Positions 18,083-54,472 of a DNA stretch of 64,000 nucleotides are shown piece by piece. Location: contig VMFR01000001.1 in NCBI GenBank assembly GCA_007376135.1, positions 206,554 through 270,553 of the forward strand. Reading direction: 5' to 3'. This stretch comes from Parcubacteria group bacterium Gr01-1014_31 (lineage in GTDB: Bacteria > Patescibacteriota > Patescibacteriia > Buchananbacterales > GWA2-38-13). Both the position numbers and the translations under genes were made by a program. Numbering within the stretch: position 1 is the first letter of the stretch; every line of letters begins with the position of its first letter. The notes under the pieces are model-generated. The model saw nothing but the letters and a program-made list of their open reading frames with translations. It was not told the origin of the DNA and made no database searches.

Positions 18083-18598
18083 TTGTGCACATCCATGGGC
18101 CCTGAACAGGCATTCATCCAAGCCTATGACCAATATGCCGACGCCATTTACAGGCATTGCTACTTTCGCGTGCTTGACCGAGAGAAGGCGCGGGACCTGA
18201 TGCAGGAGGCCTTCACCCGCACCTGGTCGTACCTTGCCGACGGCAATGAGGTCGACAACCTACGCGCTTTCCTTTACCGGGTCGCCAATAACCTCATCAT
18301 TGACCAGTCCCGCAAACGGCCGACCGTTTCTCTGGATGAAATTCGGGAGCGCGGGGTCGAACTGGGCAAAACCTCGCCGGAGGACATCGGCAAGCGGCTG
18401 GACCTGCAAGTGGTGGCCAAGGCCCTGCAACAGATCGACCCGCCGTGCCGCGACCTCCTGATACTCCGTTATCTGGATGGCATGCCGCCGCGCGATATCG
18501 CCAAAACCTGCCACCTACCCATCAGCCGCGTCTACGTCCAACTCCACCGCGGCCGTCAGCAGCTCCGTATACTTCTTTCCACCACCTACCATGCGTAA
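18083..18598 (+). CDS. ECF-type RNA polymerase sigma-70 factor
   Basis: Region 2 (FTRTWSYLA, LYRVANNLIIDQSRK) and region 4 HTH (RDIAKTCHLPISRVYVQLHRGRQQL). Confidence 0.85.
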   Translation: MCTSMGPEQAFIQAYDQYADAIYRHCYFRVLDREKARDLMQEAFTRTWSYLADGNEVDNLRAFLYRVANNLIIDQSRKRPTVSLDEIRERGVELGKTSPEDIGKRLDLQVVAKALQQIDPPCRDLLILRYLDGMPPRDIAKTCHLPISRVYVQLHRGRQQLRILLSTTYHA

Positions 18599-20024
18599 AT
18601 TTCTAAAACTCTTCCGCCACGCGTTGACCAACGAGCAGCTCGCCCCCGCCGACCGCGAGGCCATCCGGTCAACGATACTGCGCGCCATCGCTTTGCACCC
18701 GGCGAAGAACGAGCAGCTTTTCCAGCGGGTGCGCGTACGCGACGCCGCGCCTGACCTGTTCGCGTTCTTGCGGCGCCCGTCGTTCGCGGTCATTAGCCTC
18801 GGCATTCTGCTGGCCGGCGGCGGGGTATCCTATGCCGCCGAGGACGCGCTGCCCGGCGGGTTCTTGTACCCGATCAAGGTTGCCGTTACCGAACCGTTGC
18901 GCGCCACGCTGACGTTCTCGGCCGAGCAGCGCGCCGTGCTGGCGGCAAAACTCGCGGACCGGCGCCTGCGCGAAGCCGAGCGCCTCGCGGCGGACGGCCG
19001 ATTGACCGCCGAAACCAGCGCGCAGCTCGCCAACCAGCTGACCAAGCATGCCGCCAAGGTGCAGGCCAACGTTGCCCGCCTGGAAGCCGCCGGGAACGTG
19101 CAGGCCGCGGCCAACATAGGCACCGCGCTGGAGGCCAACCTGTACGCCCACGCCGAGGTCATGACCCAGCTGGAACGGAAAGCGAAGGAGCTCCGCGGGA
19201 ATGACGACGAGCCCGATGAGGACTGGGAAACCCTCGCGACCTCCACCACGGCCGGCGTCGCGGCGACCACGACCGCCGCCGCGGACCAAAACTCCGGCGA
19301 TAATGACGGCCGTCCGCGCAAGGAAAGCACGCTGCTGGAGACCATCCGTGATCGGAGCGGCATGGCGCGCCGCCAGCAGGAAAACCTGGAGCGCCGGGTC
19401 GCCGAACGATCCAAGCAATCACGGAAGGCGGCGGAAAATAAACGCGCCGCCGCGGAGAATGCCATTGAAGAAACGCGCAAGTTCCTCCGCAAAGCCTCGG
19501 CGCGGTACGGCACGGCCGCCACCGCTGCCGCCACGGTCCGGCTGGATGCCGCCATGACCGTTCTGTCCCAGGGCATTGAACGCTTCAATGCCGACGAGTT
19601 TGCCCAGGCTTTCGTCCAATTCCAGCTGGCGCACCGCGGGGCCCAGGAAGCCAGGCAGCTCATCGTGGCCGTGAAAGACCTCGAAAAGAGACTGCCGACG
19701 CTTTCCACGGGTACCCCCTCCTGGTTGCTCGCGGCCAGCTCCACGCCAGTGATGACCATTGGCGGTGAGGATGCGCGGGATGATGACGATGAAGATGCCG
19801 CGGAAGCGCCAAAACCTGCGACCACGACCAGCCAGAGCGCCGCGGAACGACGCCGCGAAATTGAGCGCGAACAAAATGAGCTGCGGCGCAAGGAAGAGCG
19901 GCGGGAAGAGAATAGGCGGAGCGAGAATGGCGCACCAACACCCACTCCGACGCCCTCCCCCACCCCCAAAATTGAAGTGGAAGTCGAAATAGACACCAAG
20001 ACCGAACTGGACCTGAATTTCTAG
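18591..20024 (+). CDS. DUF5667-like protein cotranscribed with the ECF sigma (putative anti-sigma or partner); membrane-anchored, Ala-rich coiled-coil, Pro-Thr tail
   Basis: Internal Met MRKFLKLFRH... of ORF 18477..20024 overlaps the sigma stop by 8 bp, which suggests translational coupling. One TM segment (VISLGILLAGGGV). Confidence 0.55.
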   Translation: MRKFLKLFRHALTNEQLAPADREAIRSTILRAIALHPAKNEQLFQRVRVRDAAPDLFAFLRRPSFAVISLGILLAGGGVSYAAEDALPGGFLYPIKVAVTEPLRATLTFSAEQRAVLAAKLADRRLREAERLAADGRLTAETSAQLANQLTKHAAKVQANVARLEAAGNVQAAANIGTALEANLYAHAEVMTQLERKAKELRGNDDEPDEDWETLATSTTAGVAATTTAAADQNSGDNDGRPRKESTLLETIRDRSGMARRQQENLERRVAERSKQSRKAAENKRAAAENAIEETRKFLRKASARYGTAATAAATVRLDAAMTVLSQGIERFNADEFAQAFVQFQLAHRGAQEARQLIVAVKDLEKRLPTLSTGTPSWLLAASSTPVMTIGGEDARDDDDEDAAEAPKPATTTSQSAAERRREIEREQNELRRKEERREENRRSENGAPTPTPTPSPTPKIEVEVEIDTKTELDLNF

Positions 20025-20105: not shown

Positions 20106-22766
20106 ATGCGAACCAGCCCCGCCTTCCCGCAAAAACCGGCCCGCGTCGCGATTAAAACCGCGCACCGGGTAGCGGTCGCGTCGCTGCTCATCACCGGGTC
20201 GACGGCTATCGCGCTTGCGTTCGGTACGTCGGCGACCCTGTTGGGTTTTGCGCTCTTCCCGCCGTTGCAGGTGCAAATGCAGGGCGTCGTACTACAGGCA
20301 GCAAACCGGCCCTTTATCCAACCCGCCATTCCCGATGCCTGGCGGCCATACATCGCCGAGAGATCCCTCAATAACTTGACTTTGCGCTTGTACGCCGGCA
20401 TCACCACACTGGGCATCCATATTTCCAGCAACACGAACCTGGCGACTGGACTGAACCGCCCGGTGTACTACCGCGAGAAGGGTGCGCTGCAATGGCTTCC
20501 GGCACACCCCTTGACGGGCCGCATCACCAAATCGCTTCCGCAGGAGGACGGTTCCTACGAGTACGAACCCTTGGAGCTGTACGTTACCTCGCTGTTCTGG
20601 CTCAAACCGGGAATTGTCTACGAGGTTTGCCTGTTGATTTCCGGCGCAACATGCGACGCCGACGGCAATCTGAAAGTCTCCCTGGCGACCCGGCAGGCAA
20701 CGAATTCGCCTACGCCGGAGGCGTTCTTTACCCCCACCCGCACGGTCATCGTGGACCCGGACCCGGCGAAGGGCGACTTTACTGCCATTCAGGCGGCAGT
20801 GAACGATTCCGCGACCGCACCGGGTACGCGCATCCAGATCAACGCCGGCGTCTACCACGAAGCGGTGACGATAAAATCCGACCGGTCCGGTGCCCCTGGC
20901 CGCTGGCTCCAGTTGTACGGCATGCCCGGCGCAGTTTTGGACGGTTCCTATGCCGCTTCGGAGCTTTTTACGCCCGGCTCCGCCTGGGAAAAGGTGACCC
21001 CGCCGAATGCCGTGAACGGCGACCACATCTACAAACGTCCGGTTCGCGATGACGTGCTGATCGGCTGGCTGGGCGACGAACAACTGCTGCGCCACCGCGA
21101 TTCCGACCGCGGCAGCGGCTGGAAGAATTTTGTCGATGCCAACGCGGGAGAATTCCGCGACGGCTGCGATGAACCGAAGTTCCTTGTCCGACGCAGCTGG
21201 TACATGGACGAGGCCAACGACCTTATCTACCTCCGCTGGGACAGCGCCGTTGACCCCGCCGGCCTGGACCTGACATTCTCTCGCTACCCCATGGGCATCA
21301 TGCTGGACGGCGCCGACTGGGTGTGGGTGGAGGGGCTGCAGATCAGCCGCTTCGGCAATGGCCCCCGCACCGGTGCAGTCTACATCCAGAACGGTGAGTT
21401 CAACATCGTGCGCCGCAATGCCATTCTGCGCAATGCCGACGGCATTAGCGTCATCTGGCGCGAGAGGGGCGAAAATTGCCAAACCGCGCTCTGCAGCGGC
21501 GACGACGGCTCGTCATTCAACCGCGTCGAGGACAATACCATCGATAACGGCATTCCCGACGCCACGCTTTCTTACTGCCACACCAAGCGCTCCGCCCCAT
21601 TCTTCGGCATTCGCCTGGGCGGCAGCCTAGGCAACTCGGCTTCCGGCAATTCCCTCACCCGCATCGGCGAGAACAGCATCCAGATCACGCTCGCCGGAGA
21701 CATGGCGAAAGCGACACGCTGCAACGACGAGGAATCCTGCCGGGATCTTTTCCCGTACGTGCTCTGGGAGACCGACGTGTACGACAACACCATCTTTACC
21801 AACGTGGAGGGGCTGGAACCGGACGGCGCCCAGGTCAACGGCCGCCTGTTTCACAACCGCCTCCGCAACGTGGAGAAATATCTTGTCTCCCTGCAGGCCT
21901 CGCAGTACGGACCGACGTTCGTCGTGCGCAATATCCTGACGCGCAGCGAACCCTCCGAACTGCTGCTGACGGAAACGACCAAGAACCGCTATCCGTACCT
22001 GCACCGCTACACCTACATCTACCACAACAATCTCTGGCTGGACTACCACAGCCGACCACTCTCGACCAAAATGTATTTCAAGGAATTTCACCTGCGCTAC
22101 CGCAACAATGTCTTTCGCAACAGCAGCGGCTCGGTCGCCTCGTTTGACAACCGCCTGGATGCCGACGAGGAGGAGTACGCTGGCAACGCCGACCTGGATT
22201 ACAACGCATACAGCTCCGGCGAGGGCAGTCCCATCGTCAACTGGGTGACTGAGAGCGGCTGGGACGACATCCGCACCAGCAGCCGGCTTTGCTCCGAACA
22301 CGGGCTGGAATGCCACGGCATCGGCGGCGGCGGATTTTGGCCCGACGGGTTGTCCGCTCCGGCCGAGGAGGATTTCACACCCCTGTCGAACGGCAAATAC
22401 TTGGATGCCGGCGAGGTCATTCCCGGCATCAATCTGCCCTACTACGGCAAGAAGCCCGACATCGGCGCGGAGGAGCTGGCGATGTTCAAACGCGGCGACT
22501 CGAACGGCGACGGCAAGATGGATATCGGCGACAGCATTTTTACGCTCAACCATTTGTTCATTGGCGGCCGACAGCCTGGTTGTCTGGACGCCGCCGACTA
22601 CACCGATGACGGCAAGGTGAATCTTGCCGACGCGGTCGCCAATATCAACTACCTATTCCTCGGCAGCGAGGTTCCGCCGAGCGAGCCCGCCTCCGCCTGC
22701 GGCTACGACCCCACCCCCGACACTCTCCGTTGCGCGGAATTCCTCCCGTGCGCGAAGTGGGAATAA
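20106..22766 (+). CDS. Secreted right-handed parallel beta-helix protein (pectate-lyase/NosD-like fold) with C-terminal type-I dockerin domain
   Basis: Beta-helix repeats across residues ~230-650. The C-terminus has two Ca-loop/helix dockerin repeats (GDSNGDGKMDIGDSIFTLNHLF ... DYTDDGKVNLADAVANINYLF). Confidence 0.7.
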   Translation: MRTSPAFPQKPARVAIKTAHRVAVASLLITGSTAIALAFGTSATLLGFALFPPLQVQMQGVVLQAANRPFIQPAIPDAWRPYIAERSLNNLTLRLYAGITTLGIHISSNTNLATGLNRPVYYREKGALQWLPAHPLTGRITKSLPQEDGSYEYEPLELYVTSLFWLKPGIVYEVCLLISGATCDADGNLKVSLATRQATNSPTPEAFFTPTRTVIVDPDPAKGDFTAIQAAVNDSATAPGTRIQINAGVYHEAVTIKSDRSGAPGRWLQLYGMPGAVLDGSYAASELFTPGSAWEKVTPPNAVNGDHIYKRPVRDDVLIGWLGDEQLLRHRDSDRGSGWKNFVDANAGEFRDGCDEPKFLVRRSWYMDEANDLIYLRWDSAVDPAGLDLTFSRYPMGIMLDGADWVWVEGLQISRFGNGPRTGAVYIQNGEFNIVRRNAILRNADGISVIWRERGENCQTALCSGDDGSSFNRVEDNTIDNGIPDATLSYCHTKRSAPFFGIRLGGSLGNSASGNSLTRIGENSIQITLAGDMAKATRCNDEESCRDLFPYVLWETDVYDNTIFTNVEGLEPDGAQVNGRLFHNRLRNVEKYLVSLQASQYGPTFVVRNILTRSEPSELLLTETTKNRYPYLHRYTYIYHNNLWLDYHSRPLSTKMYFKEFHLRYRNNVFRNSSGSVASFDNRLDADEEEYAGNADLDYNAYSSGEGSPIVNWVTESGWDDIRTSSRLCSEHGLECHGIGGGGFWPDGLSAPAEEDFTPLSNGKYLDAGEVIPGINLPYYGKKPDIGAEELAMFKRGDSNGDGKMDIGDSIFTLNHLFIGGRQPGCLDAADYTDDGKVNLADAVANINYLFLGSEVPPSEPASACGYDPTPDTLRCAEFLPCAKWE

Positions 22767-22804
22767 TTTTTGGCACCTGAAAGGTGCCACCAAACCGATT
22801 GTTT

Positions 22805-23177
22805 CCCCACCTTTCTAGGAAAGGTGGGACCAAAGTCGCGCCCCGTGTCAGAAGGTAGAAAAAATCAGACTCGCTCGGCGTAAAATCGCTATGCGCACTC
22901 GGCGTCAGCACGCGATTTCCCACCTCCTCGCTTGTCTCGATTTTTTACCTACTTTCCTCCAATGGGCGCATCGCGTCGGTCCGGGCCGATCCGAGCATTG
23001 GAGTAATTCAGGAAGAATTACGCGGCGAGAAGGCCGGGTTTGCGCCGCGCAAAACGCGAGGGTGTCTGAGGAGCGGAGCGACGAGTTCGCGAGCGTACGG
23101 ACGACGAGTCGCATAATTCTCTGAATTACGGAGTCTGCTCGGCAGTTTTTGGCCACCTTTTGCTGCCAAAAGGTGGC
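22805..23177. repeat. Hairpin-ended repeat element, copy A (contains a nested 128-bp palindromic-ended insertion at ~23007..23134). It is an inverted copy of 44942..45209.
   Basis: The reverse complement of 44942..45209 aligns base-for-base over ~270 bp, with a few substitutions. The outer hairpin is ccacctttctaggaaaggtgg and the inner hairpin is gccaccttttgctgccaaaaggtggc. Confidence 0.85.
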
Positions 23178-23215
23178 GATAAAATCATTTTAACGTAGCC
23201 AAAATCAGTCAATTC

Positions 23216-23250
23216 CTATTGACTTTTTTTATTATCTATGGTATATTAAT
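23216..23250 (+). promoter_or_regulatory. Putative sigma70-type promoter (TTGACT -35, ~18 bp spacer, TATATT -10) for the dockerin gene
   Basis: AT-rich tract ttgactttttttattatctatggtatattaat lies 45-75 bp upstream of the ATG at 23293, and GGAG sits 7 nt before the start. Confidence 0.4.
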
Positions 23251-23292
23251 ATCCTTTGTATACGCCCTTTCCACAATCTTCGGAGTAGAGCC

Positions 23293-23622
23293 ATGTTCTC
23301 AACGCTTGTTCTTGCAGCAGTACTGCTGGGCCAGGGTGAGGAGTCGGACATCACCGCGTTCATTCGCGGCGACGCCAATAACGACCAACGGGTCAATATC
23401 GCCGATGCGATAGCCATCGTTTCCGTCCTGTTCGGACGCCAGCATCCCCCACTCCTGTGCGGGGACGCGGCCGATGCGAACAACGACGGCGCCATCACCA
23501 TCGCCGACCCCCTCTTCCTCATCCAGTACCAATTTGGCGGCGGTATTCCACCTCCGTCGCCATTCCCGGCTCCCGGCCTGGACACCGGCTGGGACCAATT
23601 AGCCTGCGGCGTCGCGGGCTAA
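23293..23622 (+). CDS. Small free-standing dockerin-domain protein (109 aa) with N-terminal signal-like segment
   Basis: Two dockerin repeats: GDANNDQRVNIADAIAIVSVLFG and GDAADANNDGAITIADPLFLIQYQFGG. Confidence 0.6.
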   Translation: MFSTLVLAAVLLGQGEESDITAFIRGDANNDQRVNIADAIAIVSVLFGRQHPPLLCGDAADANNDGAITIADPLFLIQYQFGGGIPPPSPFPAPGLDTGWDQLACGVAG

Positions 23623-24682
23623 GCACTCTCCTTTTCTCGTGGCGGGCGGCATCCTTCGGGGTCCCGCCCGCTTTTCATTTTCCCTACCTCCAGATATAAA
23701 GACCCTCCATCTCTGGCCATTTGCGCCCCCAACGTCATTCCGGCCTCGGCCTGTCCCGCTGTTGACGGGGAGCCGGAATCCAGAACGAACATAACCCGTC
23801 ATCCCTGGCCCGGACCAGGAATGACATCTTGAATGAGGGTTACCCACATGAAATCGAGTGATGACCGTCCTGGATGCAGGATTCTCACTCATAAAAAAAC
23901 ACCCCGCGTTGCAAGCGCAGGGCATTTGAGTGAAGAACGGGGGCGGACTAACCGTAGTGGTTGTCCGACATCGAAATGTGGGTGGCGGCCAATCCTGGCC
24001 ATGCAGGCGGCGGAGCGGCGGGCTCTGCTTGTTCGTTGGAATGTGCGGCTTCACTGCCACTGGGTTGTGCTTCGCTGCCGAGTACTGCTTGTGGCGCATA
24101 CACACCGTCACCACTGGAAAAGGGCGAGTCAAACGGATATGGCATCCTACCTCCTATCGGGTTGGCGGAAAATTCGGAAACTACAGATTAGCGGAAATCG
24201 ACCCCCTGGTCAAGGGTCGCTGCATACGGGGTAAGAAAACTTTTTACAGTGCTAGGTACTAAGAAGATAGTAGGCGCTTGATGTCATCCCGGCACCCCTC
24301 ACCCAACCCCTCTCCCTGAGGGAGAGGGTGGCCGGAGGCCGGGTGAGGGCGCCCACCCCAAACTCCGTCATCGTGAAAATGACCAAACACCCGCACCCTC
24401 CGGTCCCCCTCCCCGCGCCCAACCGTCATTCCGGCCCCGGCCTGTCCCGCAGTTGGCGGGAAGCCGGGATCTCACCCACGGGTGACCCCCCCCGAAGGGG
24501 GGCAGAACACAATCACCGGGTTTCTGGGTCCCCGCAGAAGTTTACCCTCATGAAAATGGGGGCGAGGACGACCAGACGGCCACAGAAACGACAAATACCA
24601 AAAAGCGGCCCGTGAGGGCCGCTTTTCACTTCTCCTAAACCGATCCTACCGTCCTACTCGACTACACTCCTACTCACCCTGA

Positions 24683-24763
24683 CTATCGGTAGGACAACAT
24701 CGTCACGTGCTTGCCGGACTTCTTCCGGTGCTTCTTCTGCGCAACTTTGCGTTTCTTATTCAT
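24683..24763 (-). CDS. 26-aa highly basic peptide (MNKKRKVAQKKHRKKSGKHVTMLSYR), speculative
   Basis: Small ORF followed on the same strand by a strong hairpin plus T-run at ~24600..24628. Confidence 0.2.
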   Translation of the reverse strand: MNKKRKVAQKKHRKKSGKHVTMLSYR

Positions 24764-24804
24764 GGGGTAAGGTTAGCACGACAAGCGCGGTCTCACAATG
24801 GTCA

Positions 24805-26637
24805 TTACGGCAGGGTCGGCAACGGCATATTCAGGTCAGGGCACTCCAGCAGGTTTATCCAACGCTTGGTGGTCTTGTAGACGTACCCGGTCGGGGTCTG
24901 CGCGTTGGGCAAGCCGTACGGCACCCATGGCAGCAGCACCTGCTCCCAGTACTTTTTCTGGAATTCCATCACCGCGTCGCGGGTCGCCTTATCGTAGACG
25001 CCCGTCACGGCGAGGCTCAGCCCGAGGTTCTTGTTCAGGAACTCCTGCAGTTTCTTCACTTCCTCCGGGTCGTTCTTGGCCCCGTACTTGATGAATTTTT
25101 TCAGGTACTCGGTGCTGCATACGAACGGGGTTTCCTCAGTGCTGACACCCAAGACCCGCGGCTGCGGGACGCTGCCCGCCGGAACGCCAGTGGGCACTCC
25201 TGGACCGCGACCCGGCGGGCCGTTGGCGCCGCCCCTTGGCGTCGGAGTCGGCGTGGGTGAGCTGCCACCACCGCCGGGGGTTGGCGTTGGGGTGGGCGTG
25301 GGTTCAGGTGTTGGCGTGGGTGTCGGGGTCGGGCCAGGACCGTCGCCGTTGTCTTCATTATCGTCGTCCGTGCCTGTGCAACCCGGGTCATCCATATCCA
25401 CGAGTTCGTCGTCGTCATTGTCAACGCCGTCGGAACATTCCGTGGTCGGAGTCGGCGTGGGGGTTGGCGTTGGGGTGGGCGTCGGGTCAACCGGGTCGGT
25501 TTCGTCATCGTCCTCGTCGCTGTCGCAGCCCAGGTCGTCCAAATCCACCTCGCCGTCGTCGTCATTGTCCTCCCCATCCGAACACTGCGGTGTCGGCGTC
25601 GGACTGGGCGTCGGGGTCGGCGTGGGCGTCGGGTCAACGGGGTCGGTTTCGTCATCATCGTCCGGAGCACTGCAACCCGGGTCGTCCGAATCTATCAGCT
25701 CGTCGGCGTCGTTATCCTCTCCGTCCGAACACTGCGGTGTCGGCGTAGGCGTCGGGTCAACGAGGTCGGTTTCGTCATCATCGTCCGGGTTGGAACAACC
25801 CGGGTCCTCGGAATCTACCAACTGGTCCCCATCATTATCGGTAGTATCCGAACACTGCGGTGTCGGCGTCGGACTGGGTGTCGGGGTGGGTGTTGGGGTC
25901 GGGTCAACGGGGTCGGTTTCGTCATCATCGTCCGGAGCACTGCATCCCGGGTCCTGCTCATCCACGAGTTGGTCGCCGTCATTGTCCGTAGTGTCCGAGC
26001 ACTGCGGAGTTGGCGTTGGAGTCGGAGTTGGCGTCGGCGTGGGTGTCGGGGTGACCGGGTCCGTTTCGTCGTTGTCCTCGGCGTTGGCGCATCCCGGGTC
26101 CGCCAAATCTACTAACTGGTCGCCGTCGTTATCGGTGGTGTCGGAACACTGCGGAGACGACTCGCTGACCGTCACCTGCACGGATGCCGTTGCCTCGCCG
26201 GAGCTTTCTGCGCCCGGAGGAGTCGCGTGATACAGCTTGGCGATAATGGTATAGGTACCGCCAGCCTCGTAGTCGTGGGTATTGTGCCACGGCCCGGAAA
26301 AATTCTTCACGTTACCGTGAGACAGGTCCACGAATTCCAGCACGGACGTATCGTCCACGTTGCCGTCGCCCCAGTTCACCTGCACGTCGTGCTGCGAGAA
26401 CTGGCCGACGAACGGGACGCCGAACCCGGTGCCGTCCACCTGGACCGACAGACCGTTCACGGTCGTGCCGGTAATAGTTAGGTCATACTCTCCCCCGCCC
26501 GTGGCGGCCATGATGGCCGCGGGCGAAAATGCGGACACCACCATGGAAAAGATGGTCGCGGCGGCCACGGTCCGCAGCCCGTCCAGACGGGAGTGCACAG
26601 AGGCAAACAGCCGTTTCGCGCGGATGTTTTTCTTCAT
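24805..26637 (-). CDS. Secreted protein with six Cys-bracketed Ca-binding-like repeats (QCSDTTDNDGDQLVDxxDPGC) joined by PT linkers, a Gly/Pro-rich spacer and a C-terminal peptidoglycan-binding (PGBD1-like) domain
   Basis: ORF track. The repeats are DxDxDG-type. The C-terminus ...LQEFLNKNLGLSLAVTGVYDKATRDAVMEFQKKY... matches the PG_binding_1 pattern. Confidence 0.7.
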   Translation of the reverse strand: MKKNIRAKRLFASVHSRLDGLRTVAAATIFSMVVSAFSPAAIMAATGGGEYDLTITGTTVNGLSVQVDGTGFGVPFVGQFSQHDVQVNWGDGNVDDTSVLEFVDLSHGNVKNFSGPWHNTHDYEAGGTYTIIAKLYHATPPGAESSGEATASVQVTVSESSPQCSDTTDNDGDQLVDLADPGCANAEDNDETDPVTPTPTPTPTPTPTPTPQCSDTTDNDGDQLVDEQDPGCSAPDDDDETDPVDPTPTPTPTPSPTPTPQCSDTTDNDGDQLVDSEDPGCSNPDDDDETDLVDPTPTPTPQCSDGEDNDADELIDSDDPGCSAPDDDDETDPVDPTPTPTPTPSPTPTPQCSDGEDNDDDGEVDLDDLGCDSDEDDDETDPVDPTPTPTPTPTPTPTTECSDGVDNDDDELVDMDDPGCTGTDDDNEDNGDGPGPTPTPTPTPEPTPTPTPTPGGGGSSPTPTPTPRGGANGPPGRGPGVPTGVPAGSVPQPRVLGVSTEETPFVCSTEYLKKFIKYGAKNDPEEVKKLQEFLNKNLGLSLAVTGVYDKATRDAVMEFQKKYWEQVLLPWVPYGLPNAQTPTGYVYKTTKRWINLLECPDLNMPLPTLP

Positions 26638-26763
26638 AGATAAACGGTTATAACGGGTTTGAAATTAGTCGACCACTTTACCCTGACCAAAGCATTGTGT
26701 CAACCCGCGCACAAAGGGCGCCATACCGGCGCCCTGGCATGCCTAACTCTTCGTGGCGCGCGG

Positions 26764-27996
26764 CTACTCGCAAAGCTGCCCGGCAATGGTGTTGTAGATG
26801 GCGGCAAGGTCCCCGCTGGACGGGCTGAAGTAGTACTGCCCGCCGGTCATCGTTGCGATCTGCTGCAACATCGTGCTGTTGACGTTGGAGCCAAGGCCGA
26901 TAGTGAAAATGGTGGTGCTGGCGTTGGCCGCGTCCTGCGCGCGGTTGATGGCGTAGGTAACATCTGCGGCGTACTCACCGTACCCGGGGCCGAACGGCTT
27001 GTTGGCCTTGCCGTCGGTCAAAAGGATTTCCACGTGAGCTGCTGCTGGGCGCATCCGCACGGATGTAAGCTCGGTGTTCGCGGTCTTAATGGCGTCGCCA
27101 ATGTTTGTTGCGCCAACCGCCACCAGCGCGTCGATCTTGGTCTTTACCAATGGGTAGTTGTTGGTCAACGTTTGGTCCAGGGTCACGCTGGTTGCGAACG
27201 ATACCAAGGACGCCTGGTCGTTCGGAGTGAGTAGGTCCACAAAGCCCTTGGCTGCCGCCTTGGCGTCAACGAACCGCTGGCCGCTGTCAAACAGCATGGA
27301 GCCGGAGCGGTCAATGATGAGGACGACGTCCACCGGCCCGGTGCACTGCTGGGTTGTGCAGCTCGCGCTGCAGGAAGCTCCCGGCTGGCCGTTCTGCGGC
27401 CCCAGGTCGCACTCCTCGCCCGGTTCCATAATGCCGTTGCCGCAGGAGGGGTCGATGTTGACCGACAGGTCACAGCCGAATTCGCCGTTGGTGGTAACGA
27501 TGCCGCCTTTGTGGTCCTGGGCGACGCCGCCGCTGGTCGGGTCGGCGATGGCCGGCGCGTCCAAAAGCACGGTCCAGACGTCGGTCTCGTCCGTGCTTTC
27601 CGTTAAGGTCGCGTTGGCCGGCACGTCGCCTTCGCCCGTTTCGCCCGTCAGCGAGATGTACGGACACAGGTCGCGGTAGTAGCCGGGCAGCTCAGGGTCG
27701 CCGCCGTCCGGGTACTCCGGGTGCTCCGGCGGCAAGGGCTTGCGCTTCTCCTCTATCCAGTAATCCTGCGACTGGCCCAGGAATTCCGGCGCCAGGGTAA
27801 TAGTGAAGGTTTCGTCCAGCTGCTCGCCCGGGAAGACCATGCCGAAGTCCAAATGGTTGATGGATTCCAAGATGGGCAGCAAGGTGGCCGACACGCCGAT
27901 GAGCGCAGACTGGAATATCGCGAACACCAGCCCGCTCACCACGAGTGTGGCGGTTCCCTTGGCCCAGCGGCGGATGGTCATTTTGGAGGTGAACAT
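26764..27996 (-). CDS. Secreted vWA-domain protein with a Myxococcus-type Cys-rich repeat; member of the SipW-cognate-like N-terminal family
   Basis: VWA MIDAS region (VVLIIDRSGSM, ... LTDG). CGNGIMEPGEECDLGPQNGQPGASCSASC repeat. N-terminal AIFQSALIGVSATL...FGMVFPGEQLDETF parallels the paralogs at 33291 and 35135. Confidence 0.8.
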   Translation of the reverse strand: MFTSKMTIRRWAKGTATLVVSGLVFAIFQSALIGVSATLLPILESINHLDFGMVFPGEQLDETFTITLAPEFLGQSQDYWIEEKRKPLPPEHPEYPDGGDPELPGYYRDLCPYISLTGETGEGDVPANATLTESTDETDVWTVLLDAPAIADPTSGGVAQDHKGGIVTTNGEFGCDLSVNIDPSCGNGIMEPGEECDLGPQNGQPGASCSASCTTQQCTGPVDVVLIIDRSGSMLFDSGQRFVDAKAAAKGFVDLLTPNDQASLVSFATSVTLDQTLTNNYPLVKTKIDALVAVGATNIGDAIKTANTELTSVRMRPAAAHVEILLTDGKANKPFGPGYGEYAADVTYAINRAQDAANASTTIFTIGLGSNVNSTMLQQIATMTGGQYYFSPSSGDLAAIYNTIAGQLCE

Positions 27997-28005
27997 GGCG
28001 ATAGT

Positions 28006-31000
28006 CTAGCTGCCATCAACAGGCGTCGGGGTCGGCGTTGGCGACACGGTCGGCGATTCCTCGGTCACGACCGGTTCATCGGACGGCTCCGGCGGCAAAA
28101 CAGCATCGGTTTCCGGTGAAGTTGTGGCAGTATCGTCCGTCGGCGTAGGCGTCGGGGTCGGACTGGGCTCGGGCGTTGGCGATGGGGTGGGTTCCGGCGT
28201 TGGTTCCGGGGTCGGTGACGGCGATGGCGTGGGGGTCGGTTCCACGACCGGCTCCTCTACTTTGCTGACGGGAGCGACCAATTCCTCGGGGCTGGGTTCC
28301 GGCGTCGGGGTCGGCGACGGAGACGCCAGAAGCTCTTCATTCACGGGCTCGAACGCGATCGGGCTGGAGTAGTCATCCGACGGGAAGAGCGCGTCCCACT
28401 CCGCATCGGTCAGCAATGCCGCGTCCTCCACTTCCGGTTCATCCGGCAGCTCGCTGACCACGCCGACCTCCTCGGCCGGTTCGCCGTCGCAGGTTTCGCC
28501 GGTGTTGTCGTCGCCGGGCGTCGGGCACGGGTCCACCCAGTCGCCCGTGCCGTCCGGCACGCGAGCGTAGGAATTGCCCTCGCCTTTCTCACTGGTCCAA
28601 ATGAATTCGTCCAGCAGCGCGCCGTTGCCGCCGATCTCGCGGTTGTACAGCCGCACGCGGTCCCCGCTGTTGTTCAGATTGAAGTCCGAATCGCCGTTAC
28701 GGTAGACCACCATCTGCCCGCCCGCCGCAATGGTCGTGGTGCCGGTGTCCGTGTTGAAGGCGCCAATATCCAGCTCATTGCCGTTGCTGCTGTCGTACAG
28801 CATCCACCCGGCCAGGGAAATAGGCTTGCCGGAACGGTTATAGAGCTCCACCCATTCGCCATTGGGTTTGCCGGCGTCATCGGCGCCAGCGGGGTTGGGC
28901 AGCACTTCGTTCAGCACTACCTCCTGCTGCCCGGTCGGCGAGCAGCCGTCCCATGGGATGAGGTTGCCGTCGTCGCACTGTTCATCCTGTTCCAGCACGC
29001 CGTTGCCGTAGCCCGGCAGGATGCACTGGCCGGCGTTCGGATTCTCGTCCTCGTAGAAATTGTAGATACGGGCGGCGACGTACGCGGCGCGCGCCAGGTC
29101 ATCGCGGGTGGCGCTGCCGTTGGCGATGTACTGCTCCACAGCGGCGATCGCCTGCTGCACCGTCGACGTCGGGCTTAAGCCAAGAACGTCGAAGGCGGCA
29201 TTCCCGTCGTCGGAACCGCCCAAGAGCGCGTCCAGACGCAGACGGCCGGCCGAGACGTTGGCCTCATCGGCCAGGACGTGCGCCTTGGCGCGGCAGCGCT
29301 GGCCGGAAACCGTGCCGCCGCTCGGGCAGTTGCTGGTGTTCACATTGGCGCAGACTTGCGGCCCGGTGATGCCGACAAAGACATCCGAGAAACCGTCCGA
29401 CAACACGCTGACCTCGTCGGCCCAGATGCTGGACGTCGGGCAGCCGTCGTTGTTGCGGTAGTAGCCGATGGACAGGGCCGAGCACTCATTGGTCAGCGGC
29501 TCACAGGTCGTCGAGCAGTTGCTGCCCGGCTGGCCGTTCTGGGTCCCTTCGTCGCACTGTTCGGTCTGACCGAAGGAATTGGGCGTCTGTACCGTGCCGT
29601 CGCCGCACCAGTTGGTCGGCGTACAGGTGTTGTCACAGTCGTCGAAATTATTGGTGTTGCCGTCGTCGCACTGCTCCGGGGCTTCCACGGTGCCATTGCC
29701 GCACTCCGGCGCGACCGTGCAGTCGTTCCGGCAGGCGTCCTCGTCATTCGTATTGCCATCGTCGCACTGCTCCGTTTCCTGGTTGACGATGCCGTCGCCG
29801 CAGCGGACCGGGATGGGGCACAGCACCACTTCATCAACGGCGTAGCTGTCGCCGCCGCGCAACTTGAGCTGGCGGATGCCCGTCGTCTGATCGCCGGTTA
29901 TCTTTTGCACCGAGTTACCGCCCTTGGTCGGCACGGGGATGGAGAACACCTGCGCGGTGCCACTCGCGTCTGCGTACCCGACCACCTCGCCGGTGCTGTT
30001 GTCCAGGTCAATATACTTGACCGAGGAGAACGCCATCGGTTGAGCAAAGGTGAAACGGAGGGAACCGCCGGCCGGTTCGTCGTTCGGGTCATCCACGTCG
30101 CCGTCGGCGGGGGCCGTGTCCACCACGTTGTCGGGGATGATGAGGAGGTTGTGCAGCGCCGTCGCGTTGGACGGTTCCTTGCCGTCGCCGCTCTCGCTGT
30201 TGCCCGGGCCGCCGAACTGGAGGTTGGGGGTGCCCAGGTCCACGTCCACGATGCCGTCGCCGTTGACGCCGCCCGTCGGGGTGTCGGAATCAAAGGTGAT
30301 CCCCACCTGCGGATGCCCGGCGTTGTAGTTGTGCGCGGTGACGGCGATACCCCACGGCAGGTATTCGCCGTCAATGAATTGGCCGCGGCGTATCACGCCG
30401 CCGTTCGCGTCGGTGTCAAAATCCAAAGTGATGGCGTTTTCGCACACGCCGTCCTGGTAGTTGCCGAAGTCCAAGTTGGAGGCAAACTCGCCCTGCGCCA
30501 GGGTCACGTTGATGTTTACTGGCGTGCTGTGGGTCCAGCCGTCGCGGTCCTCTTCCATCACCGTGTAGCTGCCCGCGTTCAAACCGGAGAATTCATAGTA
30601 CCCGGCCGTGTCCGTCACGGCCCCGCCCACGGCATCGCCCGAAAGCGTTATCTGCCAGCCGGGAATCGCGGGTTCGCCCGCGTCCCAAACACCGTCCTTG
30701 TCCAAGTCGTTGAACTTGTGGCCGGACAGGCCGCCGCGGCGCTCTTCCTGCTTGTTGCCGAAGTCCACGACCGTTTCGCATCTGCCGAGGTACACGGCCA
30801 CGCTGTCGTCTGTGGTGGATATCCAGCCGTTCTGCGGCGCCTCGGTCACGATGTAGTCGCCGAAGTCCAGGTTCCCGAACTGGTAGTTGCCGTTCGAGTC
30901 CGTCACCTGGTTGCCGAGGTCGCGCGCCGCCAGCCAGTTCTGGAAATCGCCCAGGTCGCCGGACGGAAGCGCGAGGGAGGAGTCATTGTTGAAATCACAC

Positions 31001-31380
31001 TGCGTGCCGGCGGGACACGTTGCCCCGTCCACGATAACGTCTTCCAGCACGCCGTAGTCGTTGGAATCGTTAAATCCGTTGCCGTTGTAATCAAATTCAG
31101 CGGCATAGGGCCCGCGCTTCAGCTCAATGACCCAGTTCTCCAGGCCCGGCTCGCCCGCGTCGCGGATACCGTCGCCGTCCAGGTCGTTGAACTTGGTCCC
31201 GTGGAGCACGACCTCCTCGCACCGCGGCGTGATGCGGGCCGTGACGTTCACGACCGAAGCCTCAAAGGCCGCAATGACCGGCAGCTGGGTGAGCACCACC
31301 GCAAACGCGACCAGCGAAGCACCCACACGCTTGGTAGCGGTGAGCACGCGCTTCGTCAGTTTTTTAGTTCGTGACCTCAT
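28006..31380 (-). CDS. Giant secreted adhesin-like protein (1124 aa): SipW-cognate-like N-terminus, Cna-B/SdrD-B-like domains, four Myxococcus Cys-rich repeats, a lamin-tail domain (LTD) and a PT-rich C-terminal tail
   Basis: N-terminus ...[14 protein letters not shown]. Cna-B-like segments ([29 protein letters not shown]). [23 protein letters not shown] repeats x4. LTD segment [28 protein letters not shown]. Confidence 0.8.
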
Positions 31381-31387
31381 GGTGAGA

Positions 31388-31830
31388 ACGTATCTAGTAT
31401 CTGGTATCTCGTATTTAGGTAAAGGATTTGCACTTTTTGATCAGACCATTCAGTAACTTATGAACTTCAACGGTCAGTTTTGCGATGGTCTGGAATTTAT
31501 CGTTCGTAATATATTTAACGTCGCGCGCAACGAGTAATTGGTTCTGTAATTCCGTTACTGATCCCTCCGCGAATGAATAAAAGTGTAATTTCTCTTTCCA
31601 GGATTGGCGGCTAAAGCCTTCGGCGATATTGGAAGTGATGGATACTGCGCTCCGGCGCATCTGACTGACCAGCCCGAATGTTTCGTCTTTTGGAAACCCT
31701 TTTGTCGTCTGATAGATCTGGAGGACCAACTGATGCCCCTGCTGCCACGTTGTTAAATTCGTGAAGTTTTTAATTTTTTCCATTTTTATATTCGCTAGAT
31801 ACTAGATACTACATACTAGATACTCCGCCT
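31388..31830. mobile_element. Low-GC cassette carrying a four-helix-bundle gene, flanked by inverted arrays of heptamer repeats (GTATCTN x3.5 on the left, TAGATAC x4 on the right)
   Basis: Left gtatctagtatctggtatctcgtat (~31390..31416) and right tagatactagatactacatactagatact (~31795..31826) are reverse complements. Interior GC is about 43% against ~65% in the flanks. Confidence 0.55.
31415..31783 (-). CDS. Four-helix-bundle protein (TIGR02436 family, the type found in 23S rRNA intervening sequences and mobile DNA)
   Basis: 122 aa, [59 protein letters not shown]-rich codon usage. Confidence 0.75.
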
Positions 31831-31831
31831 T

Positions 31832-32395
31832 TCACTTCTGCACCTTCTTACTCACCATTATGGAAATGAACCCCAGCTTCGGTATCCGCACCGGTTTGCC
31901 CGACGACCAGTTCAGCGTGCGGCCGATGACGGTAGTGACGGCGACTGGCTTATCATCCACGTTGTTGGCGTCGCCGCGGGTGGTGATCTCACCTTTGGCG
32001 GTGTCAATTTCCTTGATGCGGTGGATGGTGAACCCGCGCTCGTTGGTGTAGACCACGATGTCCCCGACCTTCAGCTCTTCGGCGGAGACGGCCTGCACCA
32101 GGATGAGGTCCCCGACCTTCAGTTCGGGCCACATGGACCCGGACGTGATTGCCGCCATCGGGTACTCGGTCTTCAGCCACCTGGACAGCCCAATGGGCAG
32201 CCCCCACACCAGCAGGGCGACGAACCCGACGTAGACGACCACGTTCAGGACCAGTTTCAGGATGCGCCGCGACATCGGCTTTTTCTTTTTCTCCGACATC
32301 CTGGGCGTCACCGTGGAACGCTCGATACCGGCCGCTGCCGCATCGGTGCCCTCCATCTGCGGCGTCGCGGATTCGTTGTTTTGTTCTTCTGACAT
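31832..32395 (-). CDS. Signal peptidase I, SipW/archaeal type (SPase I, S26B-like)
   Basis: 187 aa. Its N-terminal acidic/basic segment is followed by one TM helix. Catalytic SGSMWP motif, a GDANNV-type motif (TRGDANNVDD), and a C-terminal second hydrophobic region. Confidence 0.8.
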   Translation of the reverse strand: MSEEQNNESATPQMEGTDAAAAGIERSTVTPRMSEKKKKPMSRRILKLVLNVVVYVGFVALLVWGLPIGLSRWLKTEYPMAAITSGSMWPELKVGDLILVQAVSAEELKVGDIVVYTNERGFTIHRIKEIDTAKGEITTRGDANNVDDKPVAVTTVIGRTLNWSSGKPVRIPKLGFISIMVSKKVQK

Positions 32396-32515
32396 TGTAA
32401 GGTGCAGTCCGGTGAATTAGGAATCAGGAATAAGGAATTATGCGCCGCAGCATCCCTTATTACTAACTCCTAATTCATGCCGTTCCCTAATTCCTAATTC
32501 TTAATTCCCTATTCG

Positions 32516-33028
32516 CTAAAACAACTTGGGCCACTTGAATATCATCACCCGTCCGCTGTACTTGCGGTATTGCGCCGACGACGGGATGCGGACATTGAAC
32601 TCCAGCTTCACCTCTTCGCCCGGCTGCAGCGTGAATTTCGCCGGCCGGTCCACTTTCATCAGCTCGGCCAGCTCGCCGGATTTCACCACCCAGATGGTCT
32701 TTGCCATTTTGCCGGGGTTTTTCAGGTTGATGAAGCGGGAAGCTCCGGTGTCGCGCGACAGGTCGCCAAAGTCCAGGCGCTCGGCCGTCGGGTTGACGCC
32801 GACTCGGTCGGTGCCCTCCACCACCTGCACGATGGCCTGGTAGCGTTCGGCTGCCATCACCTGCACGCCGATAAACCACACGACCGCAATGGCGCCGATC
32901 AACAGGAACGCCTGCTTCTTGGTCCACTGCTTGCGCGGCTTTTTCGGCGCAGCAACCGGAGCCGGCGCCGGAGCAGCCTGCGTCGTATTCGGTACTTGAG
33001 GTTCTGCGCTTGGCATCTGGGGTTCCAT
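32516..33028 (-). CDS. Membrane-anchored hypothetical protein (170 aa) between the signal peptidase and its putative substrates; possible accessory (TapA-like role) protein
   Basis: A Pro/Ala-rich N-terminus and TM helix (FLLIGAIAVVWFIGV) precede a ~110-aa beta-rich ectodomain. Confidence 0.45.
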   Translation of the reverse strand: MEPQMPSAEPQVPNTTQAAPAPAPVAAPKKPRKQWTKKQAFLLIGAIAVVWFIGVQVMAAERYQAIVQVVEGTDRVGVNPTAERLDFGDLSRDTGASRFINLKNPGKMAKTIWVVKSGELAELMKVDRPAKFTLQPGEEVKLEFNVRIPSSAQYRKYSGRVMIFKWPKLF

Positions 33029-33290
33029 AGATCGGTGAATTAGGAATTTCGAATTATGAATTGGGGGTGCGGTTTTTGGAATTTTTGTCTCAGGCGCCTA
33101 ATTCCTGATTCATAATTCCTTATTCCCCGTATTAACTCCCCATCCCCCTCCGCCCCTTTGGTTGGTGAAGTATGAAGTTCGAATTATGAATAAGGGTATC
33201 GGTTGCCCAATTCCTGATTCATAATTCCTTATTCTTCACGAAACCGCAGGGACGAAGGGCGGATTGGCAGTCAATCGAAGCAGAAATGCC

Positions 33291-34628
33291 TTACGGAACG
33301 GGCTCTGGGGTCGGCTCCGGCGTCGGCGACGGCAGCGGGTCAACCCCATTTTGGGTGAGGTTGTCGATGGCCGTCACTTCAAACCACAGGTCGCAGCCAA
33401 ACACCTCGTGCTCCAGCTCCGGAGGGAGCATGTAGTCATTCGGGTCGGCCGCTGGATTGTGGCTACGGACGAAGTCCGCCCAGTCCTGGGCGCAGGCGCC
33501 CTTGAAACAGGGCACCGGCAGGTCGATGATCCACGTGTCGCCCACGTCCGTACCCGTCTTTTTGATCTTGCCGCGGGCAACGGATGTTGCCAGCTCAGGG
33601 TCATGGAAGGCGGGCACCCCGTAGTCATTGGCCACCGGATGGTTGTCCGGCGTCTTTGACAGGTAGGGGCAGAGGGATGGATAGCACTTTTCCAAGTACG
33701 TTGTCCACACCGTATCGGACGAGTCGTACGGGGTCGTCGGAAGGTTGAGGTGGCAGTAATCGCGTGCGACCGTCACCCCAACCTCCTGCAAGAATCCGTC
33801 CCGCGGCTTGGGTTTCTGCTTGATCACGTAGTGCACCGTGGAAACGCGGGTCTGGTCGGTTTCCGAAAAGGATTCGCTGAAGGTGACAAAGGTGCCACGC
33901 TCCAGATACTCCTGCGGGAACACGGTGCCATGGTTATCCGGGTCCTGGACGTAGTCTGCCGGATCCGCGGTCGGGTTGATTCCGTGGACGTAGTCCTCCC
34001 AGTCCTGGGCGCAGAAACCGTCAAAGCACGGAACCTTCAGGTCGATCTTCCACTGGTCGCGAACGTCATCGTTTGACTTGGCCAGATAACCAATGGCCTC
34101 GAGCCAAGAAATGGACGACGTCGAAACCGTGAACGGCTGGTGGAATGCGGCGACCTCAACCTCGTTAATTTCGACACCATCTGCACCCTTGTGCTTGGAC
34201 AGGTAGGGGCAGAGTGACGGTAGTACGCCCCAGTCCGCGCCCTCGGGCATGTTTTCCGGCCGAGGACCACAATCAATACGGTAACCGCCCTGACCATCTA
34301 AAACGACATGGCCAGTGGCCGTCGGGAAGTCCAACATCACGGTTCCGCCGTCGGTGGTAACTGCGCACTTGGGCTTCTGGCGAATCATGTACTGGACATC
34401 ATCCGCGTCCTTTTCGTCCAAGAACGAGCCAGAAAGCTGAACATCAAAAACCTTGTCCAGCTGCTCCTGCGGGAATACGGTGCCGTAGCGGATTTCCTTG
34501 ATCGGTACTTCCAAGGCGTTCTCGATGCGCGCCGTCACGTTGATGACGTGTGCCTCAAAGGCGGCGAACATTGGGACCGATGCGACGGCCAATGCCAGCG
34601 CCGAGAAGCCGAACAAAACTTTCTTCAT
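33291..34628 (-). CDS. Secreted protein, SipW-cognate-like N-terminus, internally duplicated Cys-motif domain (LCPYLSK ... VPCFxGxCAQDW)
   Basis: MKKVLFGFSALALAVASVPMFAAFEAHVINVTARIENALEV... has two repeats of the LCPYLSK/VPCF(D/K)G(F/A)CAQDW(E/A)D(Y/F)V module, then a Pro-Thr tail. Confidence 0.75.
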   Translation of the reverse strand: MKKVLFGFSALALAVASVPMFAAFEAHVINVTARIENALEVPIKEIRYGTVFPQEQLDKVFDVQLSGSFLDEKDADDVQYMIRQKPKCAVTTDGGTVMLDFPTATGHVVLDGQGGYRIDCGPRPENMPEGADWGVLPSLCPYLSKHKGADGVEINEVEVAAFHQPFTVSTSSISWLEAIGYLAKSNDDVRDQWKIDLKVPCFDGFCAQDWEDYVHGINPTADPADYVQDPDNHGTVFPQEYLERGTFVTFSESFSETDQTRVSTVHYVIKQKPKPRDGFLQEVGVTVARDYCHLNLPTTPYDSSDTVWTTYLEKCYPSLCPYLSKTPDNHPVANDYGVPAFHDPELATSVARGKIKKTGTDVGDTWIIDLPVPCFKGACAQDWADFVRSHNPAADPNDYMLPPELEHEVFGCDLWFEVTAIDNLTQNGVDPLPSPTPEPTPEPVP

Positions 34629-35134
34629 AATGGTTTGCTCCTTTTTAGGGTATTAGGTGCGTACTTGTTACTTTTTAAGTAACTCACCCCATACAGGAAT
34701 CACTCCTGTCCTCCGGGGGAATTGCGCCCGCAATCCCACGTTCCGGGATCGGGCAAGGTACTTAATGAGCTTGAGGCCACCCACGCCTGTTCCGTGGAGG
34801 AACGGAAGAGGTGTGGGTTCGACTTTTGGCCGCAAGTGATTGTCAACCCTTCGATAGGATCTGCTCAGGGTTGCCCTGAGCGCCGCCGAACGGGCAATTG
34901 GGCGGAACGTCCCGCCAACGGCGGGAATGTTGTCCTCCCATCCCCCAGCCTCTTCCCGATAAGGGGCTGGGTCAATGGACGGACAACCGACTCCTCGTCA
35001 TCCCGGCACCCTCACCCTATCCCTCTCCCCGAGGGAGAGGGTGGCCGGAGGCCGGGTGAGGGCCGGAATGACGGTTTAGTTACGGTTGGTCAATGGTACA
35101 GACTACCCGCCTACATCACTACCTAACTTCACGT

Positions 35135-36451: not shown

Positions 36452-36967
36452 TTTTCTGGCTAAGTACCTAGCACTTCGTACTTAGCACTGAGAACTTATT
36501 ACTTAGAACTTCGTTCAGTGACTCGCCCCGCACTTGAAAGCGTGCCCTCCGGGAGCCTGCGCCCGCACCTTCCAGTATGGAGCTAGCCACTGCATTGGAC
36601 TTCCACTACACCCCGCCTTTGGCGGGTTCGACCTTTTGCAGCGGAATAAAATGTAAGGTTCCTCGGGAGTATATTGTCCTCCCATTTCCGGTCCCCTCAC
36701 TCGGCCAGGTGAGGGCACGGGTCAATGGACGGATAACCGACTCCTAGTCGTCCCCGCCCCCATTTTCATGGGGGTAAACTCCAGCGGGGATGATGCATGG
36801 CTCGGGAATGACGGTTTGGTTACGGTTGGTCAATGCTGCGGTTCTACCCGCCTACCCAACTACTTTACCTACCCAACTCTTCCTGCGCCCGTGACGGTCG
36901 CTCCCGGGTGTACGTCAGCCGTAAGCCAACGTACACCCGGCGGCAACCGTCGCCGCCGTTTTCGGAA

Positions 36968-37225: not shown

Positions 37226-37384
37226 AGGTTGCAGTCTATAACTTCGATAGATGGTTGTCTATATGCGTTCGCCCGGATAAATTGGCCATCAGGGAGCGCG
37301 GCAGGGAGAACCGTTGAGATGCCAATGGAGCGCAAAAGCGTTCAGATGTACCTTCCTCCCCTCCTCCAAGGGGTACAACGCGAC

Positions 37385-44227: not shown

Positions 44228-44237
44228 CAATGCAGCG

Positions 44238-54471: not shown

Positions 54472-54472
54472 A

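Follow-up and report, generated by a model that had tools for sequence, protein, structure and literature searches.

The subject of this analysis is a group of three genes, A, B and C, in a 64,000-nucleotide (nt) stretch of DNA, hereafter the window, from Parcubacteria group bacterium Gr01-1014_31, an uncultivated member of the candidate phyla radiation (CPR). Gene A is identical to G01um101431_218 of this organism, on a contig of 539,480 bp. A and B follow each other on the plus strand and each encode one dockerin, in A at the end of a large beta-helix-like protein and in B within a protein of only 109 amino acids (aa). C lies on the opposite strand and encodes a wall protein with six calcium (Ca)-loop repeats (Table 1). 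An earlier note, made from the letters alone, had recognised the dockerins and had suggested C as a plausible docking partner. Our results confirm the dockerins and the independence of B, and they speak against the role proposed for C; a cohesin encoded outside the window appears to us the likeliest ligand.

Table 1. Coordinates of genes, modules, expression signals and repeats at the locus (position 1 is the first letter of the window)
Feature	Position	Strand	Description
Gene A	20106..22766	+	Open reading frame (ORF), 886 aa; N-terminal hydrophobic anchor or signal, right-handed beta-helix-like body, C-terminal dockerin
Dockerin module of A	22467..22751	+	About aa 788-882; two F-hand Ca loops, then a Pro-rich tail containing 3 Cys
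Promoter of B, sigma-70-type	23219..23247	+	TTGACT, 17 nt, TG-n-TATATT; 10/12 consensus matches, extended -10 TG
Gene B	23293..23622	+	ORF, 109 aa; 15-aa hydrophobic leader, dockerin repeats aa 27-48 and 61-82, PPPSPFP...LAC tail
Intrinsic terminator of B	23641..23681	+	GC-rich hairpin, then UUUUCAUUUU; RNA fold -24.9 kcal/mol, z = -3.05
Gene C	24805..26637	-	ORF, 610 aa; Ig-like N-domain ~aa 50-160, 6 Ca-loop repeats aa 162-455, PG_binding_1 aa 525-563
Tandem DNA array of C repeats and linkers	25377..26156	-	Period ~147 nt, 74-80% matches (Tandem Repeats Finder)
Promoter-like site of C	26675..26703	-	TTGACA, 17 nt, TAAAGT; 10/12 consensus matches
Dispersed repeat, ~54 nt, copy 1	23734-23759	+	
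Dispersed repeat, ~54 nt, copy 2	24425-24450	+	
Dispersed repeat, ~54 nt, copy 3	39578-39603	-	
Dispersed repeat, ~54 nt, copy 4	41047-41072	+	

The dockerin modules of A and B

In B, Pfam assigns Dockerin_1 (PF00404) to aa 26-79 with 34.8 bits (cut-off 22.9). The same model reaches aa 797-850 of A with 23.0 bits, so that A is borderline for the generic family, whose gathering cut-off is 22.9. A further profile was made from 13 small dockerin proteins, B included and A excluded (alignment A2). It gives 90 bits for the last 95 residues of A (E 4e-27, profile positions 20-115) and 121 bits for B, which is itself among its members. When this profile was run against the six-frame translation of all 64 kb, it found exactly two dockerin modules, those of A and B. 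Phmmer searches of the Protein Data Bank (PDB) with the A dockerin likewise matched dockerins.

Both modules consist of two 12-residue Ca loops, each followed by a helix, with Asp or Asn at loop positions 1, 3, 5, 9 and 12. The loops are DANNDQRVNIAD and DANNDGAITIAD in B and DSNGDGKMDIGD and DYTDDGKVNLAD in A; in the second loop of A, position 3 is occupied by Thr. B contains two Cys, C56 and C105. Its AlphaFold2 model has helices at aa 36-46 and 71-81, a mean predicted local distance difference test score (pLDDT) of 73.8 and values of 86-95 across the second repeat (aa 61-90). Compared with the PDB by Foldseek, the model has solved dockerins as its best 28 matches throughout (probability 0.84-1.0; the next matches reach at most 0.06). 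The target-normalised template modelling (TM) score is 0.54-0.82, mostly 0.7-0.8, and the root-mean-square deviation mostly 1.3-2.6 Å, in some cases up to 5.0 Å. Solved dockerins are thus the only matches of the B model with a probability above 0.1, and the alternative named in the earlier note, generic EF-hand-like loops without paired helices, does not hold. The modules of A and B are true dockerins. As to the type I label given to the A module in the earlier note, the architecture of two Ca-loop repeats is indeed present; "type I" is here merely the name of the Pfam family, since a type can only be assigned together with a cohesin.

We also considered whether B might be a recent duplicate of the A dockerin. 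This was rejected, as the two share 40% identity and B is 45-66% identical to other small dockerins.

The remainder of A looks like a beta-helix protein that is exported or held by an N-terminal anchor and resembles a polysaccharide-active enzyme, judged by matches to Beta_helix and NosD that stay below the Pfam cut-offs and by a weak pectinesterase-like match. For this lineage-specific body no homologues were found besides one close relative, and searches of the GTDB species set returned matches to the dockerin only. The orthologue is 81% identical to A (pN/pS, the ratio of non-synonymous to synonymous differences per site, 0.25) and adjoins the B orthologue on its metagenomic contig (L004). 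Along the alignment of A with positions 227-2944 of that contig, synonymous divergence is mosaic: the N-terminal anchor has 0.14, the beta-helix body 0.49 and the dockerin 0.20, compared with 0.15 for B. This pattern suggests that the body either was exchanged through recombination or represents an allelic variant of long standing, the two ends of A and the whole of B being shared.

Gene B is a gene of its own

The promoter of B (Table 1) is followed by a ribosome-binding site, GGAG, 7 nt before the ATG, and the stop codon by an intrinsic terminator. Three contigs of a related population have TTGACT, TATATT and GGAG unchanged, with 2-3 substitutions in spacer and leader, and in these contigs the homology ends at about 23196, some 25 nt 5' of the -35 hexamer. 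Between B and its relative there are 13 synonymous and 3 non-synonymous differences (pS 0.154, pN 0.012, ratio 0.08). The length of B is the same in four related contigs. The order A-B is retained in L004, where A lies directly upstream and B is 98% identical. A-B-C synteny was looked for in other genomes and not found; the one close relative of A is on contigs of 4.0-5.2 kb which end before C.

One might think of B as the leftover C-terminus of a decayed dockerin gene. It is very short, its leader is atypical in having no basic residues, and it is situated in a gene-poor 2-kb stretch with dispersed repeats. We regard this explanation as hardly credible in view of the invariant promoter and ribosome-binding site, the terminator after the stop, the constant length and the strong excess of synonymous differences. 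Furthermore, the frame of B has no earlier start codon, no homologous coding remnant was found upstream, and independent small homologues with leaders exist in other lineages. Judged by these signals and substitution counts, B is a functional, separately transcribed gene under purifying selection, and the earlier description of it as a free-standing dockerin gene is borne out.

The spacer between A and B (22767-23195) is not conserved; the distance is 526 bp here compared with 278 bp in the relative. Three hairpins built on a CACCTTT...AAAGGTG core are found in it, at 22773-22790, 22808-22832 and 23146-23183.

Small stand-alone dockerins elsewhere

A word-indexed search with B yielded 19 proteins, 17 of which are 73-153 aa long. 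Most of the B-like small proteins have a hydrophobic leader, one dockerin and the tail PPPSP(F/G)P-x-C-G-x-D-P-x3-L-x-C; the homologues with hydrophobic leaders span 97-183 aa and the family is typically ~100-120 aa in length. The genomic neighbours of the distant members are unrelated to one another. At the 79 metagenome loci with the most B-like modules, the module is mostly terminal in proteins of 300-3400 aa, and only about four complete ORFs are shorter than 160 aa. Free-standing dockerins thus recur, as a minority.

One of them, on a low-GC, CPR-like groundwater contig (L066, 1824-5935), is a 114-aa homologue of B with a canonical signal peptide; it follows a type IV pilus cluster with a prepilin peptidase and four pseudopilin-like genes.

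The dockerin subtype and its cohesins

Out of 1.84 billion cluster representatives, a profile of dockerin plus tail matched 54,097 (E<=0.001), and the module is often present several times in one protein. This subtype is very large and non-cellulosomal; its two repeats are joined via a conserved Cys, and a Pro-rich tail that contains more Cys comes after them. Its company was studied in the best-scoring 150 of the 54,097 representatives. For 95 of these Pfam was run, and Dockerin_1 was found in 90 and Cohesin in 23 of the 95. Individual proteins, P0116 and P0133 among them, have a Cohesin above the gathering score (27-30 bits in these two), flanked by two dockerins. A cohesin profile iterated from the cohesin segments fused to this subtype recognises a cohesin in 85-90 of the 150. 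The list was ranked by summed score and is biased in favour of multi-module proteins; for single-module proteins the proportion is lower. That these segments are cohesins is indicated by a comparison of their alignment with the PDB, in which 31 of the 32 matches are solved cohesins (best E 5e-6).

Among the same 150 proteins, with D for dockerin and C for cohesin, the architectures D-C-C-D (22 proteins), D-C-D-C-D (19), D-C-D (18) and D-D-C-D (12) are found. Such self-complementary, alternating proteins could polymerise. We know of no description of proteins made only of alternating dockerins and cohesins of this subtype. The remaining ~60 of the 150 are dockerin-only arrays of 2-14 modules without a cohesin, for example P0032 from Planctomycetota. 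From these architectures we conclude that in other organisms cohesins are genuine partners of the subtype; B can be placed at the one-module end of a series of dockerin-only proteins.

Gene C, a wall protein of another family

In agreement with the earlier note, C has a C-terminal PG_binding_1 domain (PF01471; 33.9 bits, cut-off 23) and six Cys-bracketed Ca-loop repeats with PT linkers between them. Their pattern is C-S-D-x2-D-N-D-x-D-x3-D-x2-D-P-G-C, and they match the NCBIfam family NF033662, "acidic double-disulfide repeat", in six stretches with 96 bits (cut-off 41). Each has two Cys and matches positions 4-28 of the 32 in the family model, whose name implies four Cys. Pfam gave no match to TSP_3 (PF02412) at E<=0.1 in C. 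The only solved relatives of the repeat are the Cys-rich (C-rich) domains of teneurins (7PLP, E 0.0068; Drosophila Ten-m, E 0.05). The AlphaFold2 model of the N-domain is a six-stranded beta sandwich (pLDDT 82-93 across the sandwich) with immunoglobulin (Ig)/E-set domains as best PDB matches and no cohesin among the top 50. The candidacy of this domain as a cryptic cohesin was rejected, as it has no Pfam match at E<=1, no match to the cohesin profile and an Ig-like model.

The best 120 homologues of C come from Parcubacteria, DPANN archaea and Myxococcota, where they are surface proteins. They have the stalk and the anchor in common and carry varied adhesin-like heads (Ig-like DUF5011, SpaA-like, VWA, PKD, DUF11). 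In one of them (P0180) TSP_3 repeats (53.7 bits) stand in place of the acidic repeats; in another (P0247) the acidic repeats occur alongside cellulase, chitinase and CBM domains. By this comparison C is a secreted, wall-tethered, Ca-loop-rich protein of the head-stalk-anchor type common in CPR bacteria, with the repeats as an interchangeable stalk.

Could the C repeats nevertheless be a non-canonical scaffold on which A and B dock, with B as a cap? The genes are adjacent, C is wall-tethered and multivalent, and the second dockerin loop with its Cys (P-x-C-x-D-A-A-D-x-N-D-D-G) resembles the C motif (P-Q-C-S-D-x-x-D-N-D-G-D) to the extent that the profiles cross-match weakly. This resemblance is, however, best taken as that of a shared EF-hand/T3-type Ca-loop motif and not of a binding interface. 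The acidic-repeat profile matches 114 of the 120 C homologues and just one of the 150 dockerin-subtype proteins, compared with the 85-90 of these in which a cohesin is found. Conversely, the cohesin profile matches none of the 120 C homologues, and eight apparent dockerins among them turned out to be acidic repeats cross-matching dockerin loop 2 and the preceding Cys, so that none is real. The repeat family is, moreover, widespread in CPR bacteria, DPANN archaea and Myxococcota, can link unrelated domains (P0247) and is interchangeable with TSP_3. B and C face each other across 1.18 kb as separate transcription units; a terminator-like hairpin follows each of them, and C has a promoter-like site of its own (Table 1). 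To our knowledge, acidic repeats of the C type have no precedent as a dockerin partner. The co-occurrence data, the Ig-like head and the convergent separate transcription units thus lend no support to docking on C; the idea is very unlikely, and C is probably unrelated to the dockerins.

Two of the four copies of a ~54-nt dispersed intergenic repeat (GTCATTCCGGCCnCGGCCTGTCCCGC...; Table 1), of which none would be expected in the window by chance, lie between B and C, in a gap of 1.18 kb that is poor in genes. A search of this gap against Rfam for RNA genes gave no match near threshold. The gap also holds a very basic 26-aa ORF, MNKKRKVAQKKHRKKSGKHVTMLSYR (24686-24763, minus strand). It lies 41 nt beyond the 3' end of C, and a strong terminator hairpin (24628-24599) comes after it. 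Its KKKHRK motif is reminiscent of the small ribosomal protein bS22; the ORF has no NCBIfam match.

Neighbouring genes

The neighbours in the window include DUF5667, DUF5666, sortase, DUF11, SpaA, SdrD-like, VWA, LTD and MurJ proteins as well as PT-rich linkers, a set in keeping with a Gram-positive-type envelope in a CPR bacterium. The GC content of the window is high, about 60%. Immediately 5' of A, on the same strand (18083-20024), are an extracytoplasmic function (ECF)-type sigma factor and a DUF5667 protein, possibly its anti-sigma partner. On the other side, 26764-44918 is a surface-protein or pilus-like island with two VWA proteins, a 1124-aa SdrD_B/SpaA/DUF4215/LTD protein, an S24/S26 signal peptidase, two DUF11 proteins, unannotated proteins of 170 and 445 aa, a DUF4015 glycosyl-hydrolase-like protein and a sortase. 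The island may encode fibres or adhesins that depend on the sortase. A second sigma-70 factor with a DUF5666 and DUF7282 group is located at 53971-56458.

The ligand of the dockerins

We searched the window for a cohesin in several ways. The subtype cohesin profile, run with --max on the six-frame translation, gave a best E of 0.57 and thus no cohesin; phmmer searches of the PDB with the two unannotated neighbours 33291-34628 and 32516-33028 found none either. Together with a Pfam search for PF00963 among ~48 likely genes, this upholds the earlier statement that no cohesin is recognisable. The partner of A and B is hypothetical, since the searches covered the 64-kb window and found no cohesin in it.

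To the following interpretation we assign a probability of about 0.5. A and B are independent genes with dockerins of the same widespread non-cellulosomal subtype in a surface-protein region, and these dockerins would bind, in a Ca-dependent manner, a cohesin encoded beyond the window, be it elsewhere in the contig or genome or, conceivably, in a partner organism. A would be docked onto such a cohesin by its C-terminal dockerin, and B, being monovalent and free of cargo, would take up such a site in the role of competitor, cap or filler; the idea of a capping or competing module, put forward in the earlier note, is compatible with the data. C belongs to a different, known family and would be a neighbour by way of the surface-protein island and no partner. 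A cohesin is the likeliest ligand because the subtype is fused to cohesins in over half of its best-scoring relatives. Rather improbable, in our estimate, is the further-reaching idea that monovalent, cargo-free dockerin mini-proteins form an undescribed class which regulates surface assemblies of the cohesin-dockerin type, with cohesin-bearing surface proteins of a host as possible docks for A and B of an episymbiotic CPR bacterium that might have no cohesins itself.

Several points weigh against a cohesin as ligand or leave the picture of A and B incomplete. Besides the ranking bias towards multi-module proteins and the absence of PF00963 from the window genes, a cohesin lies in the same ORF at only 17 of the 79 loci with B-like modules. 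The tail of B has low confidence in the AlphaFold2 model (pLDDT ~54). The N-terminus of B, MFSTLVLAAVLLGQG, also lacks the basic n-region that is present in the leaders of C and of the VWA and SdrD-like neighbours. Of the earlier reading of B as a signal segment plus a dockerin, the dockerin therefore stands and the signal segment is weaker than claimed; export of B is plausible, yet uncertain because of this leader. The body of A is an orphan whose enzymatic nature is suggested by nothing stronger than the Beta_helix, NosD and pectinesterase-like matches. Finally, a cohesin may truly be absent and the ligand a different one, because a genome can be rich in dockerins and yet have no cohesin, as is the case for Ruminococcus albus 8 with its 62 dockerin proteins (PMC4081043). 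Within the present subtype, proteins made of 1-14 dockerin modules only are common; the view that a dockerin-only protein or a dockerin lacking a cohesin is unusual was overstated.

This leads to the main rival explanation, which we consider possible but clearly less probable. The dockerins would be adhesin- or lectin-like modules for a ligand other than a cohesin, such as a glycan of a host cell or of the own cell or another surface structure, in an organism devoid of cohesins, and B would be a small secreted Ca-dependent binder. The negative searches of the window, the precedent of R. albus 8 and the ~60 poly-dockerin arrays without a cohesin among the best 150 are in line with it. So are the essential dockerin protein SEML1_0315 in the envelope of the cultivated Saccharibacterium Southlakia, for which host glycans were proposed as target (PMC10633639), and a giant ORF of Omnitrophota with nine non-cellulosomal dockerins, a proposed adhesin (PMC10066038). 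However, both proposals are speculations of the respective authors, and the strong fusion of the subtype with true cohesins points to a protein partner.

It has also to be considered that the dockerins might have no partner at all and serve as Ca-stabilised structural or folding modules of exported proteins, comparable to the acidic repeats, B then being a small Ca-binding protein of the surface or of a periplasm-like space. The existence of tandem arrays that comprise up to 14 modules and no other domain would agree with this, as would the Ca-loop motif that the dockerins share with the stalk repeats and the lack of a partner in the window. On the other hand, all solved matches of the B model are dockerins that bind cohesins, the regular alternation of dockerins and cohesins favours binding, and purifying selection on a stand-alone protein of 109 aa is hard to reconcile with a purely structural role. 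Partnerless modules are therefore an improbable solution, and a cohesin encoded outside the window continues to be our preferred one.

If the partner were found, its identity would inform the surface organisation or host attachment of ultrasmall CPR bacteria, and also the role of tens of thousands of non-cellulosomal dockerins from the environment. With its 109 aa, two Cys and predicted Ca binding, B would be a convenient minimal probe.

Comparison with known systems

Dockerin-containing proteins outside cellulosomes were reportedly treated by Peer et al. in 2009 in FEMS Microbiol Lett. As in the known examples of such proteins, the dockerins of the window belong to proteins regarded as exported, in organisms that do not produce cellulosomes and without a recognised cohesin partner; ultrasmall or episymbiotic bacteria including Patescibacteria are among the known cases. 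In contrast to these, B is separately transcribed and has a single module in 109 aa, and the module of the window possesses a conserved Pro/Cys tail beyond the 57 positions of the Pfam model.

With cellulosomal type I dockerins (Cel48S of C. thermocellum, 2MTE; CaDoc0917 of C. acetobutylicum, 6KGF; those of R. flavefaciens and A. cellulolyticus) the modules share the fold at 22-34% identity, the Ca ligands at positions 1, 3, 5, 9 and 12, the two-fold symmetry and, in the case of A, the C-terminal position on an enzyme-like protein. They differ from them by the lack of a scaffoldin or cohesin in the window and of a recognisable glycoside hydrolase as cargo, by the CPR host and by the Cys tail. 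Closest are the Doc-Coh-Coh-Doc, Doc-Coh-Doc and poly-dockerin proteins (P0116, P0133, P0032), which have the same subtype and tail (profile positions 20-115); P0116 and P0133 bring their own cohesins, whereas the window has none. The hypothetical "planctosome" (PMC6461901) and a cellulosome-like system in Cloacimonadota (PMC8542988) are relatives in spirit of these Doc-Coh proteins.

For the repeats of C, the segment of the C-rich domain of teneurin-4 offers a structural counterpart. There D-x2-D-N-D-x-D-x3-D-x2-D coordinates Ca in a T3-like manner and C838-C857 form a disulfide (PMC9058538; Meijer et al. 2022; 7PLP). The C consensus QCSDxxDNDxDxLVDxxDPGC keeps the acidic residues of Ca sites I and II, and its Cys pair corresponds to C838-C857. 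The alignment covers 22 N-terminal residues; the C repeats have two Cys compared with six in the teneurin domain and miss the third, LA-like Ca site. Unlike in teneurin, they occur as six tandem copies with PT linkers in a wall-anchored bacterial protein.

Summarizing, there is ample documentation of dockerins that are non-cellulosomal or lack a cohesin, the acidic repeat has a curated family model and dockerins of Patescibacteria have been noted before. The locus adds an example to a known puzzle and reveals no new mechanism. Measured against these systems, a stand-alone, single-module dockerin gene under selection is no new kind of system, but a tidy example of a little-discussed architecture.

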